Shown: positions 7,176-10,582, numbered from the stretch's first letter. The stretch is 35,120 nt of DNA from a virus (IMGVR_UViG_2778261168_000003), one strand, 5' to 3'. Translations and numbers: made by a program. The notes: a model not told the origin generated them from the sequence alone.

Positions 7176-7267
7176 TTACGCGGGTTAACAATTCGTGCTC
7201 TTAATAATACCAGGCATATCAGGCTGATGAACGTAAAAAAACGTTTTACATCAGTAAGATTATTATA

Positions 7268-7287
7268 TACTGTAAATATAAACAGTG
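7268..7287 (+). promoter_or_regulatory. LexA (SOS) box
   Basis: TACTGTAAATATAAACAGTG: perfect CTGT-N8-ACAG with AT-rich spacer, about 40 nt upstream of the Tum-like ORF. Confidence 0.6.
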
Positions 7288-7328
7288 GTTATCTATACAG
7301 TGTTGTTTGCGGTGTCATAGGAGGAAAG

Positions 7329-7517
7329 ATGCAGGACTATTTTTTGGAGTCTTTGAAGCTCCAGCGCATTGATTTTTTTCTTAAGCTTGTAGCGGCTAGT
7401 GAGTGTAGTGATGAAGAGAAGGGGCTGGCCCTGCAGTGGGTTTCTGAATTGACTGATGAACTCATGGCAAAAATCAGAAGCCACGAATACAACCGCTCAA
7501 TGGATGTCATCAGCTGA
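7329..7517 (+). CDS. SOS-controlled small protein, candidate Tum-like antirepressor
   Basis: 62-aa ORF with AGGAGGA RBS immediately downstream of the LexA box; position (after A, before cos) matches 186 tum. Assignment is by context, not sequence recognition. Confidence 0.4.
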   Translation: MQDYFLESLKLQRIDFFLKLVAASECSDEEKGLALQWVSELTDELMAKIRSHEYNRSMDVIS

Positions 7518-7527
7518 GGTGACTTTT

Positions 7528-7761
7528 ATGCGCATTGAAATAATGATCGATAAAGAGCAGAAGATTAGCCAGTCTACCCTGGACGCCCTTGAATCCGAGC
7601 TTTACCGCAATCTGCGCCCCCTGTATCCCAAAACGGTAATCCGTATCCGTAAAGGTAGCTCTAACGGTGTGGAACTGACCGGACTGCAACTGGACGAAGA
7701 AAGAAAACAAGTGATGAAAATTATGCAGAAGGTGTGGGAAGACGACAGCTGGCTGCATTGA
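7528..7761 (+). CDS. DinI-like protein
   Basis: 77-aa ORF; MRIEIMIDK...LESELYRNL...RKIMQKVWEDDSWL resembles E. coli DinI (MRIEVTIAK...ETWESADDWF); RBS GAGGTGA. Confidence 0.7.
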   Translation: MRIEIMIDKEQKISQSTLDALESELYRNLRPLYPKTVIRIRKGSSNGVELTGLQLDEERKQVMKIMQKVWEDDSWLH

Positions 7762-7874
7762 TTTTGTCAATAGACGCTTGTTTTTACTAATCAAAAAGGG
7801 TTACATATGAGTGAGAGGCGATGTCAATCAGATATCGCCTTGTTTTTTGTCAAGAAAAGAATAATAGGCTAAAA

Positions 7875-8552
7875 ATGAAAATTAATAATGTAGCGTTACC
7901 AATATCTCTTGCTGTAATCCTAACTGGTTGCGTGCCACATGCTTCTAACCGAAATATCACTGCTATTGAAGTGGTGAAGCCTGCTATTGGGCAAAGTGCT
8001 ACCGCCTACATGGGCGATCCCATTATCACATCTGCTACTGGATTTAAAACGGACGTACTAGAACTTGGTGCGGCTAATGGTGCATTGTCTTCTATCGCTG
8101 CTGGTACATATTGCAGTGAGGGGAATGGAATTTACCGCAATTATCATAACCCTCAAGCTGTTGCGTTAAAAAATCTCTATGGGCAAATCGGTAACTATGT
8201 TGATTATGTTAGTTACGATGCTGCAAAAAATGAGATATCACCGCCAAATGGTACTTCTTATACTGCATCAGAAATTTCTATCAAACGTGTTCCTGATGGG
8301 CTGTGTCGAGTTAGTAACTCATTGGTTAAGACTATCGAATACAATGGAAATGCAGGCGGTGTAATGAAGTTCACCTATCGTGAATTTGCAAACGATATGG
8401 CTCGTGCAGCATTTACAACAGATTTTTCTGTAGATTCTAAGGGAAGTGACGTTATCGCTTACAAAGGTGCCAAGTTCAAAGTGAACAAGGCTGATAACTC
8501 GTCTATTTCTTATACAATTATTTCTGGCTTTGACAAGGCTGTCACGTTCTAG
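7875..8552 (+). CDS. Lipoprotein of unknown function (cargo gene)
   Basis: Signal peptide with lipobox (ISLAVILTGC); 225 aa; AT-rich codon usage unlike the phage core. Confidence 0.6.
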   Translation: MKINNVALPISLAVILTGCVPHASNRNITAIEVVKPAIGQSATAYMGDPIITSATGFKTDVLELGAANGALSSIAAGTYCSEGNGIYRNYHNPQAVALKNLYGQIGNYVDYVSYDAAKNEISPPNGTSYTASEISIKRVPDGLCRVSNSLVKTIEYNGNAGGVMKFTYREFANDMARAAFTTDFSVDSKGSDVIAYKGAKFKVNKADNSSISYTIISGFDKAVTF

Positions 8553-8655
8553 GTTTCACGCTTGCTGAGTATGTTACGATTTTGCACATTCTGCATAAAC
8601 GCGCATGTCTATGCTGCATGAGATCGCATGATCGTTTGAGGATCTTTTGTGTTAA

Positions 8656-8680
8656 GGCCCGCCAGTTCTGGCGGGCTTTT
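8656..8680 (+). terminator. Rho-independent terminator-like hairpin
   Basis: GCCCGCCAG-TT-CTGGCGGGC stem followed by TTTT. Confidence 0.45.
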
Positions 8681-8725
8681 GCGTAGATCATGCAGGTGCA
8701 TGAAAACCACTACATAAAGCGGGCA

Positions 8726-8744
8726 GGCGTGGCGGGGATACGAG
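8726..8744. other. Candidate cos (cohesive end) site
   Basis: GGCGTGGCGGGGATACGAGCGCGCGCT resembles the P2/186 cohesive-end sequence as recalled from memory (186 GGCGTGGCGGGGAAAGCAT; P2 GGCGAGGCGGGGAAAGCAC, followed by GCGCGCT). Confidence 0.45.
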
Positions 8745-8896
8745 CGCGCGCTAAGTCATATAAGAGTTATATATTGATTTGATTGCTGGACATGCATACA
8801 GTATCGCTCTATCATCTAATAAATCTTAGAGTATTTGACAATGTTTGGATAAAATGGAACCTAACTTATTCATAATCCGCTAAACAGGGATGTCAG

Positions 8897-9811
8897 ATGC
8901 CATACCAATTGGTAGAGCTTAGCCCCGTAGCTAACGATCTTGAACAGTTAGGAACCAAAGAGAAGTTTTGGTTCTATTTCTCCGATGACACTGTAAATTT
9001 GCAGTTGTTTAAGTACTCTAGGCCAGGTACTGGCGAGCATTGGTCTGAAAAGTGTGCTGCTGAGTTATGTCATTTGCTTAACATTCCACATGCTAGCTAT
9101 GATTTGGCGCGATACAATGGTCGATTCGGTGTGGTGACTCAGAATATCATTCCATCTGGTTTCCGGATGGTAATGGGAAATGAAGTGCTTCACAGTTCGA
9201 CATTCGATTATCCTGGGCCTTTACAAGCCGGGGAAAAGCCGGTAAGGGTCAGAGAACACACTGTCACAAGGGTATTGGGTTGTTTAGATAGGGAATCTAT
9301 CAAGCCTCCTCCGAGTGTATATGATCTAACCGGGCTAAATGCAGCAGATGTATTTTGTGGATATTTGATGCTCGATGCACTTGTGAGTAATCAAGATCGC
9401 CATCATGAAAATTGGGCGATCATGCTTAACAATGAAACTGGTGAGCAGTTTTTGTGTCCAACATACGATCATGCCGCTAGTTTAGGAAGGGAGATGTTAG
9501 ATGATGAGCGTAACGAACGGCTTAATACTAAAGATAAAAATCGACAAATCCCATGTTTTGTAAGAAAAGCTCGCTCTGAGCTATTCAAAGCAAAAACTGA
9601 TAAAAAGCCCTTGCTGACCGTTGAAGCATTTCAACATGCAGTTGAAGGGAGAGTTGCCGCTCGCGACCATTGGTTAGGTAAGTTGAGCGTTTTAACAGAA
9701 GATTCCATTACAGATGTGTTTAACCAAGTGCCTTCATCGTGTATATCCGACAGTGCACGTAGATTTGCAACGTTAATGGTAATGGAAAATCGCAGAAGGT
9801 TACTAGAATGA
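8897..9811 (+). CDS. HipA/HipT-like Ser/Thr kinase, core domain only
   Basis: 304 aa; Gly-rich loop-like LGTKEKFWF near the N-terminus, catalytic-loop-like DRHHENW (HipA DxHxxN pattern) and YDHAAS (Mg-binding Asp region); lacks the HipA N-terminal subdomain. Confidence 0.6.
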   Translation: MPYQLVELSPVANDLEQLGTKEKFWFYFSDDTVNLQLFKYSRPGTGEHWSEKCAAELCHLLNIPHASYDLARYNGRFGVVTQNIIPSGFRMVMGNEVLHSSTFDYPGPLQAGEKPVRVREHTVTRVLGCLDRESIKPPPSVYDLTGLNAADVFCGYLMLDALVSNQDRHHENWAIMLNNETGEQFLCPTYDHAASLGREMLDDERNERLNTKDKNRQIPCFVRKARSELFKAKTDKKPLLTVEAFQHAVEGRVAARDHWLGKLSVLTEDSITDVFNQVPSSCISDSARRFATLMVMENRRRLLE

Positions 9812-10548
9812 CTAATACAAACTCCGTTTACGTCGCATGGCAGGCACCAGATACCAGAGACTGGCATGTTGTTGGTAACTTGCAAGAGCGCAAATCGGGG
9901 TATGTTTTCAGGTATACCAAAGGTGCTCTTAAATCTACTAAATTTACAAAGTTTAGCGGCATGAGTGATGTTCGTGAAACTTATGTTTCGGAAGAATTGT
10001 TTCCTCTTTTTAAAAATCGCCTTTTATCACCGAGACGTCCAGAGTATCCGAGTTTCATTAAATGGCTTGGATTTGAAGAAGATAAGGTAAATCCTATCGA
10101 TATTCTTGCTCGCTCGGGAGGCTTACGAAGCACTGATCAGCTGCAGATTTTCAAAAAAATTGATGTTGATTCTGATGGTAACTTTGAGCATTTTTTCTTC
10201 TTACATGGACTTGGTTACTTAAATAGCTTAGCTAATGCTCGTGTATCTGAATTGAAACCGGGGCAAATTTTGCGTCTTTGCTTGGATCTTCAAAATGAAT
10301 ACGATGGGGATGCTGTTGTCGTTCGTGCAGATAAACCAGCTGAAATCGTTGGTTACTGCCCTAGGTATTTAAGTAATGATATCAAGAAGATGTTATTGGA
10401 TGATCCAAAATCAATCACTTTAACGGTCGAAAAGATTAGCGATGATGCTCCTCATAACTATCGGTTATTATGTAAATTATCAGGAGTACTAAGCCAAGCC
10501 TGTCAATCGACGCTGATTCCTCAGGATGAGTTTGAACCTATTGAGTAA
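9808..10548 (+). CDS. HipS-like (HipA N-subdomain) plus HIRAN-like domain protein; putative partner or antitoxin
   Basis: ATGA-overlapped with the kinase. N-terminus (VYVAWQ...VVGNL...YVFRYTKGAL...ELFPLFKNRLLSPRRPE) resembles the HipA N-terminal/HipS motif (LV.W...VG.L...F.Y...FNFFDNLLPEG). C-terminus (NEYDGDAVVVRADKPAEIVGYCPRYLSNDIKKML) fits the HIRAN pattern (N.YD.NAI.V...IGYLPR). Confidence 0.55.
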   Translation: MTNTNSVYVAWQAPDTRDWHVVGNLQERKSGYVFRYTKGALKSTKFTKFSGMSDVRETYVSEELFPLFKNRLLSPRRPEYPSFIKWLGFEEDKVNPIDILARSGGLRSTDQLQIFKKIDVDSDGNFEHFFFLHGLGYLNSLANARVSELKPGQILRLCLDLQNEYDGDAVVVRADKPAEIVGYCPRYLSNDIKKMLLDDPKSITLTVEKISDDAPHNYRLLCKLSGVLSQACQSTLIPQDEFEPIE

Positions 10549-10554
10549 ATGAAG

Positions 10555-10578
10555 AAAAGCCACCAAACGGTGGCTTTT
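10555..10578. terminator. Bidirectional terminator hairpin between convergent genes
   Basis: AAAAGCCACC-AAAC-GGTGGCTTTT between the stop of the HIRAN-like gene (+) and the stop of Q (-). Confidence 0.5.
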
Positions 10579-10582
10579 CTTA

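Follow-up and report, generated by a model that had tools for sequence, protein, structure and literature searches.

The 35,120-nucleotide (nt) stretch of viral DNA IMGVR_UViG_2778261168_000003, referred to here as the window, carries an AT-rich interval (7200–10582) between its replication gene A homologue (+) and its portal gene Q homologue (−), as in the gpA–gpQ hotspot of the P2 family. It is highly probable that this interval is a five-part recombinational mosaic, composed of an SOS-induction operon, a left variable slot, a conserved cos block, a right variable slot, and Q, and that it forms the cos-proximal accessory region of a 186/Fels-2-type prophage. The right slot is occupied by a cassette with the predicted architecture of hipIN, which encodes a short HipA-family kinase and a HipS-like/HIRAN partner. 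Such an accessory region is already known. The refinements made here are limited to the base-level boundaries of the slots, the two-slot arrangement hinged on cos, and the movement of the Q 3′ end with the cargo.

Two variable slots around a conserved cos block

Breakpoints were mapped by blastn of positions 6800–11000 against 13 related loci, and the diversity of the cargo was surveyed in these loci and in a spread sample of 60 records. Four sharp breakpoints recurred, at 7759, 8601–8603, 8751–8759, and 10,625–10,661. The first two delimit the left slot and were found in L008, L009, L011, and L017, with L010 breaking earlier, at 7505. Elsewhere, the left slot was empty or held an ASCH protein with a restriction endonuclease, a 290-amino-acid (aa) hypothetical protein, or SIR2 with an ATPase. 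The last two breakpoints, seen in eight loci, delimit the right slot, and its left break falls 7–15 bp past the predicted 19-nt cohesive end. Fels-2 (L002) shared the left break and gave no returning blastn match within the query. In the window, the right slot begins 7 bp past the 19-mer and ends within the last 15–25 codons of Q. The right-slot cargo of the relatives included retron St85 (also present in BL21(DE3)), retron Ec67, AIPR, TIR, SEFIR, PIN, DUF262 with or without HEPN, DUF6953, TIGR02391, DprA with a PRTase, SieB, P-loop NTPases, and a 565-aa protein in Fels-2. A first-pass annotation of the window had stated that accessory and defense genes gather beside cos, and the varying cargo across the related prophages bears this out.

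Of 5426 complete E. coli genomes, 1277 carried the cos block, as did 58 phage records. The right-slot cassette occurred in 21 of the 5426 genomes, always beside Q and with at least 98.9% identity, and was paired with at least five distinct left-slot states. The lipoprotein gene that fills the left slot of the window was, in turn, paired with at least eight distinct right-slot cargos. The left–right combination of the window was found in one complete E. coli genome, EC361; free assortment predicts about 0.8 (21 × 50/1277, the lipoprotein segment being present in 50 of the 5426 genomes). The EC361 locus is 98.9% identical to the window region, and its flanking genes are annotated as a replication endonuclease and a phage portal protein. 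The left and right slots reassort independently, hinged on the 149-bp cos block.

Neither slot is flanked by direct or inverted repeats, and no integrase or transposase lies inside. For this reason, site-specific insertion and transposition were dropped, and homologous recombination is preferred. The cassettes would be exchanged by homologous recombination in the conserved flanks, namely the tumB 3′ end, the cos block, and the Q 3′ region. Exchange in these three flanks would lead the left and right cargo to reassort independently.

The sharp shift to AT-rich composition that had been reported between the end of gene A and the stop of Q was confirmed by a sliding GC analysis. The GC content was 0.414 over 7200–10582 versus 0.509 for the whole window, with 0.529 for gene A, 0.522 for Q, and 0.564 for P as neighbors. 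Among all 3383-bp windows, the interval was close to the lowest (minimum 0.413 at 7171; 0.09% were as low). Its edges coincide with the stops of gene A and Q, and the low-GC run ends at most about 170 bp from the Q stop. The elements expected in it were all present: the SOS module (LexA box and DinI open reading frame, ORF), the lipoprotein gene (LTGC ORF), the cos-like site (19-mer), and the Hip-like cassette (kinase and HIRAN ORFs). The first-pass annotation had treated these as a single cargo island, and the low GC content does span the distance between the stops of A and Q without a break, except for 149 bp of normal composition, which is the cos block. However, the breakpoint alignment resolved two slots on either side of this block, the four breakpoints are discrete, and the slots assort independently. 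The tumA/tumB genes and the cos block are 93–99% conserved in Fels-2, RE-2010, Klebsiella phages, and approximately 1,290 E. coli genomes, and phage 186 has a counterpart of the tum operon in position and, in part, in sequence. It is thus extremely improbable that the AT-rich 3.4 kb were acquired recently and as a whole, as a single foreign island. The first 560 bp (7200–7760, the tum operon) are AT-rich yet conserved in the lineage.

Table 1. Coordinates of the features in and around the cos-proximal interval, in window positions.
Feature	Position	Strand	Basis and remarks
186-type CI repressor	1411–1986	−	Pfam Phage_CI_repr 2.8e-33, Phage_CI_C 8.7e-27
186 CII homologue (CP76)	2354–2869	+	3.4e-42
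D12-class Dam methylase	3847–4764	+	just upstream of A; overlaps gene A start
Gene A, replication gene homologue	4761–7175	+	ORF; annotation of the EC361 locus
SOS promoter region	7245–7285	+	−35-like TTTACA (7245–7250) and −10-like TATACT (7266–7271), read from sequence
LexA box CTGTAAATATAAACAG	7270–7285	+	overlaps −10; perfect CTGT-N8-ACAG
tumA-like ORF, 62 aa	7329–7517	+	phrog_698, 5.9e-38
tumB, DinI-family, 77 aa	7528–7761	+	Pfam DinI 6.6e-23; phrog_189
Left variable slot	7760–8602		tumB stop to cos block; GC 0.397
Lipoprotein gene, 225 aa	7875–8552	+	signal peptide ending in lipobox LTGC, read from sequence; phrog_1353, 3e-105
Conserved cos block	8603–8751		149 bp; GC 0.55; breakpoints on either side
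Terminator hairpin of cos block	8654–8679, then TTTTG		repeat finder
Core cos, 56 bp	8696–8751		aligned with P2 and 186 cos cores
Predicted 19-nt cohesive end GGCGTGGCGGGGATACGAG	8726–8744	+	in register with mapped cos of P2, 186, and PSP3
Right variable slot	8752–10582		cos to Q stop; GC 0.405; homology break reaches about 10,625–10,661 inside the Q 3′ end
Sigma-70-like promoter candidate	8787–8815	+	TGGACA, 17 nt, TATCAT; best consensus match in the region (10/12); consensus match only
hipI-type short HipA-family Ser/Thr kinase, 304 aa	8897–9811	+	PADLOC PDC-M03A 2.1e-122, full length
hipN-type protein, 246 aa	9808–10548	+	PADLOC PDC-M03B 3.4e-93, full length; HipS-like N-terminal and HIRAN C-terminal parts
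Perfect 13-bp hairpin, 4-nt loop	10552–10581		100% complementary repeat; between convergent hipN and Q; bidirectional terminator equivalent to tQ
Portal gene Q, right anchor	10583–11623	−	EC361 counterpart (98.9%-identical locus) annotated as phage portal protein

The cos site

A search with the P2 19-mer allowing up to three mismatches returned no match in the window, and cos was located by alignment instead. The 56-bp core was identical to P2 at 43 positions and to 186 at 44, compared with 48 of 56 between P2 and 186. In the multiple alignment, GGCGTGGCGGGGATACGAG coincides with the annotated cohesive ends, which read GGCGAGGCGGGGAAAGCAC in P2 and GGCGTGGCGGGGAAAGCAT in 186 and PSP3. Its first 13 nt equal those of 186, and conservation with P2, 186, and PSP3 extends over the 30 bp before it and the GCGCGC after it. 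Of the 13 related loci, 12 have an identical or nearly identical 19-mer in the same place. The exception, L017, had no exact copy and a cos block of 95% identity. The earlier cos call is right, and judging from the alignment, the terminase would cut the core cos at 8726/8744. The right third of the cohesive end (8739–8744) differs systematically in the Fels-2/Klebsiella lineage, reading ATACGAG versus AAAGCAT in 186 and AAAGCAC in P2, and the 19-mer of phage 4LV2017 has an additional G-to-C change at position 12.

We also considered whether the site is a non-functional relic in a defective prophage, which would make the 1.8 kb between cos and Q irrelevant to packaging. The 19-mer departs from 186 at four positions and from P2 at five. 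In addition, no phage record was found that begins at this cos variant, all records being prophage-permuted, which leaves the cut positions as predictions. These points weigh against a working cos. However, Fels-2 and the deposited phage genomes RE-2010, 4LV2017, KP12, and others have the identical block in the same place. The cos-like sequence is the only one in the window, and the prophage has the complete P2-type gene set in order (int, CI, CII, A, Q, P, O, and onward). A relic is therefore very unlikely.

The right slot and its junction with Q

From cos to the Q stop, the window has 1838 bp versus 167 bp in P2, 176 bp in 186, and 178 bp in PSP3. The placement of a Hip-like cassette between cos and Q thus stands, but not the suggestion that this is unusual, as the slot has been described as a hotspot since 1996. 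Dodd and Egan (1996), who noted that the DNA from cos to a terminator of a 186-related prophage is replaced by retrons Ec67 and Ec86, and Nakayama (1999) proposed the cosL–Q position as an insertion hotspot (both as cited in PMC5694545). Rousset et al. (2022, PMC9122126) later surveyed 18,150 E. coli loci of the A–Q region as a defense hotspot. The gpA–gpQ rows of their locus table already contain the proteins of the present cassette, namely the HIRAN protein WP_000185757 together with the kinase WP_023568565, WP_001146828, or WP_040079441. Another of their tables has a Vibrio prophage 'HIRAN-kinase' whose second protein is annotated Couple_hipA/HIRAN (PMC9122126). The interval of the window shares with that hotspot the flanking A and Q genes, the cos site, and the swapping of cargo at the same place (retrons Ec67 and St85, other defense genes), and differs from it in nothing essential. 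A filled cos–Q slot is normal for the lineage.

The replacement starts immediately right of cos. At the other end, the tQ-like hairpin, which aligns with the P2 tQ and 186 tW hairpins, is retained, and homology with relatives carrying other cargo resumes slightly beyond it, in Q. Both hairpin terminators of the interval came from the repeat finder; the promoter/terminator scan missed them owing to its thresholds. Carriers of the cassette showed 98–99.7% identity over 8603–11000 versus 93–97% over 6800–7759, and the returning Q match of non-carriers was 82–91% identical. The higher identity of the carriers over 8603–11000 indicates that the cos block, the cassette, and the Q allele travel together. 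The portal C-terminus is itself mosaic, with the last ~15–25 codons of Q and the linked Q allele moving with the cargo. The two coupled genes of the right slot would form an operon in themselves, which has a candidate promoter and ends at a terminator common with Q.

The hipIN cassette

The stop of hipI and the start of hipN overlap by 4 bp (ATGA). Sequence-only searches of the PDB with both cassette proteins gave marginal matches only, and structure prediction followed by Foldseek was needed. The AlphaFold (AF2) model of HipI, with a predicted local distance difference test (pLDDT) score of 82.7, matched CtkA (template-modeling (TM) score 0.64–0.72), HipA, and HipT. Residues D167, N172, D191, and K39 and the N-terminal LGTKEK loop were invariant in 32 homologues, down to 57% identity. 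This Gly-rich loop comprises residues 18–23, including Thr20. D167 and D191 align with D155 and D179 of CtkA, which we take to be the catalytic residues. Pfam detected HIRAN in residues 127–228 of HipN (1.1e-13). In the AF2 model of HipN (pLDDT 88.5), the C-terminal half resembled the HIRAN domain of HLTF (TM 0.62–0.66) and the N-terminal half HipS (7ab3_E, TM 0.70). A point against the assignment is that the kinase scored below the Pfam HipA_C threshold (20.7 versus 30.5 bits), and, because of this, its placement in the family is based on fold and motifs.

The hipIN modules were defined as a short kinase (279–321 aa) without N-subdomain-1, followed by a putative antitoxin with HipS-like and HIRAN parts (Gerdes et al. 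2021, PMC8262856). By its length, motifs, predicted fold, and domains, the cassette has the hipIN architecture and corresponds to the PADLOC candidate system PDC-M03. It has in common with the modules of PMC8262856 the short kinase, the HipS-like and HIRAN partner, the kinase motifs, and Thr20. With HipBST (HipT/HipS) and E. coli HipBA, it shares the kinase fold, the catalytic residues, and a separate HipS-like polypeptide equivalent to the HipA N-subdomain-1. However, it lacks a HipB-type helix–turn–helix protein, its HipS-like part is fused to HIRAN, and the identity is about 10–13%. The CapK/CapS single-stranded-DNA-activated kinase switch (PMC13373217) was rejected as a relative, being unrelated in fold (an anti-sigma-factor kinase with STAS); it regulates transcription and does not act as a toxin.

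At E ≤ 1e-5, 955 homologues of the kinase and 535 of the HIRAN protein were retrieved, and the pair is widespread in Gammaproteobacteria. The overlapping hipI–hipN pair recurs in unrelated surroundings: on an E. coli island with AlpA and DUF3987, on the chromosome of V. cholerae, and on an Ectopseudomonas island linked to an integrase. In the E. coli contigs L019–L022, a 71%-identical pair (8001–9663) adjoins AlpA, a DUF3987 protein, and an AEP primase. It lies beside a two-partner-secretion/haemagglutinin locus (contact-dependent inhibition (CDI)-like) and could belong to a satellite or an integrative island.

Proposed function of the cassette

By analogy with HipS and HipT, hipIN would be a toxin–antitoxin (TA)-like module in which HipN keeps HipI inactive through its HipS-like domain. 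The HIRAN domain, if it acts like that of HLTF, would sense free DNA 3′ ends of invading or replicating phages. Once released, HipI would arrest the cell by phosphorylating an essential translation factor; the corresponding targets of HipA and HipT are GltX and TrpS, respectively. The outcome would be abortive infection, which may shield the lysogen population. The sequence from HIRAN sensing of phage DNA ends through kinase release to aborted infection was proposed in PMC8262856, and other HipA-family kinases have been validated in defense (PMC13092281). We favor this account tentatively: it is possible that hipIN is a genuine abortive-infection system in which DNA 3′ ends pull HipN off HipI to shut down translation and, secondarily, that it resides in one of two reassorting slots hinged on the cos block, with a hitch-hiking piece of the portal gene. 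Some points count against this account. The 2021 survey lists 'None' for the hipIN modules analyzed (PMC8262856), and papers from 2025–2026 still call hipIN/PDC-M03 predicted. The literature searched contained no experimental report of hipIN/PDC-M03 toxicity, neutralization by HipN, or phage protection.

The module might instead serve mainly addiction and stabilization by post-segregational killing, or persistence, and so retain the prophage rather than provide defense against other phages. TA and persistence are the classical roles of HipA-family modules (PMC8262856), and plasmid-borne hipBA acts as a stabilization system (PMC11487325). In V. cholerae, the pair lies at a plain chromosomal location among housekeeping genes. 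However, the right slot of the relatives contains almost exclusively known or candidate defense genes (retrons, AIPR, TIR, SEFIR, PIN, DUF262/HEPN, and SieB). PADLOC lists the pair as a defense candidate, the validated kinases mentioned above belong to the same family, and simple addiction is hard to square with a DNA-end-binding HIRAN domain. Stabilization as the main function is hence improbable, and abortive infection triggered by DNA ends is retained as the working proposal.

The SOS-induction operon

The segment from 7200 to 7760 is a 186/Fels-2-type SOS-induction operon. The sequence CTGT-N8-ACAG has a single match in the window. This predicted LexA operator precedes tumA by 44 bp and is arranged like the p95/LexA site that is annotated ahead of tum in phage 186. 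Because of its 15-nt spacer, the SOS promoter fell outside the thresholds of the promoter scan. The product of tumB aligned with residues 71–145 of 186 Tum (C-terminal half) with 41% identity (E 3e-24), and the tumA-like ORF showed ~97% DNA identity with Fels-2 STM2728. In Fels-2 and PSP3, tum is in two pieces, and the upstream half of PSP3 is an antirepressor (PMC3121763). By analogy, tumA is a candidate antirepressor half of a split tum of the Fels-2/PSP3 type, with no demonstrable homology to the N-terminal half of 186 Tum. Two results weaken this interpretation of the operon: at least one LexA-box match appeared in 27 of 100 shuffles, and a lone match in 35 kb is therefore not significant by itself, and BLASTP of tumA against the N-terminal half of 186 Tum gave no similarity. 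The LexA-repressed promoter would drive tumA, as the candidate antirepressor of the 186-type CI, and the DinI-like tumB, together constituting the SOS switch of the prophage.

The operon shares with that of phage 186 (p95-tum-orf97-t95b) the LexA site overlapping the promoter, the DinI-like C-terminal half of Tum, the 186-type CI and CII, and a third ORF followed by a terminator just before cos. It differs in that tum is split into two ORFs and the third ORF is an unrelated lipoprotein. The first-pass annotation had counted the SOS module as cargo, a view that it would have given up if homologous prophages carried the same genes as conserved core at this position. They do so for the SOS part: the segment 7176–7759 is conserved in ~1,290 E. 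coli genomes, Fels-2, and Klebsiella and Salmonella phages. Owing to this conservation and to the pairing with a 186-type CI, the module is lineage core and not cargo.

The left slot and its lipoprotein gene

The lipoprotein gene is also found in Fels-2, and its product matched nothing in Pfam, NCBIfam, or PADLOC. We regard the gene as a moron in the exchangeable left slot, on the same strand as tumAB. Homology to 186 orf97, which has the same position and the same longest-ORF length, was ruled out by BLASTP (no similarity, E 4.5). The longest lipoprotein ORF (7821–8552) and 186 orf97 (L007, 3605–4336) have exactly 243 codons each, a coincidence that could mislead synteny-based annotation.

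The lipoprotein could still be a functional analogue of 186 orf97, that is, the third gene of the SOS operon providing envelope superinfection exclusion, and not an independent moron. It takes the place of orf97 between tum and the pre-cos terminator and has the orientation of tumAB, and plasmid-expressed 186 orf97 'blocks 186 infection'. SieB, moreover, occurs in the A–Q interval of another strain. On the other hand, the lipoprotein has no homology to Orf97 and no family or defense-model match. A hairpin with a T-run (7815–7841) separates it from tumB, and it is found in 50 of ~1,277 cos-block carriers, which makes it accessory. An orf97-like role is on the whole doubtful, and the moron reading is kept.

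The positional counterpart of the left slot in P2 is tin/old, which likewise places AT-rich accessory exclusion genes between gene A and cos but is not homologous in sequence. In P2, the cargo lies on the A side of cos alone, with a cos–Q spacer of 167 bp, whereas the present prophage has cargo on both sides of cos and a 186-type tum operon that is absent from P2.

Prophage lineage and other AT-rich segments

The window is a Peduoviridae prophage of the SOS-inducible 186/Fels-2 lineage, not of the non-inducible P2 immunity type. This placement is based on the 186-type CI, the CII (CP76) homologue, and the Dam methylase. The segment 6800–8759 is 97% identical to Fels-2 and is similar at a comparable level to Klebsiella and Salmonella phages, e.g., 4LV2017 and RE-2010.

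A second AT-rich patch, a low-GC run at 18701–20500, has a GC content of 0.37, below that of 7200–10582. It contains a 401-aa ORF (18953–20158, −) on the opposite strand to the flanking tail genes, which are homologues of P2 S (18514–18966) and V (20398–20976). The ORF had no match in Pfam or PADLOC. Its position is presumably that of the non-essential low-GC orf30 in P2, and the region is probably another moron slot. Other low-GC runs (0.41–0.45) were found at 901–2550, 23551–25100, 31801–32550, and 33851–34550. The first spans the CI/immunity region, and the remaining three may be tail-fiber or late-region segments.

Implications

These results confirm the textbook biology of the P2/186 family, in which the cos-adjacent DNA stores exchangeable anti-phage genes. 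The exchange is clean enough for cassette boundaries to be predictable to within a few bases, and further cargo can be mined with the cos block and the Q 3′ end as anchors. The segment 8752–10582 is a delimited, ready-to-clone 1.8-kb hipIN cassette with a candidate native promoter, belonging to a system that was predicted in 2021 and is listed in PADLOC. If the proposed mechanism is true, hipIN would provide the first case of a bacterial immune kinase that DNA ends trigger directly.

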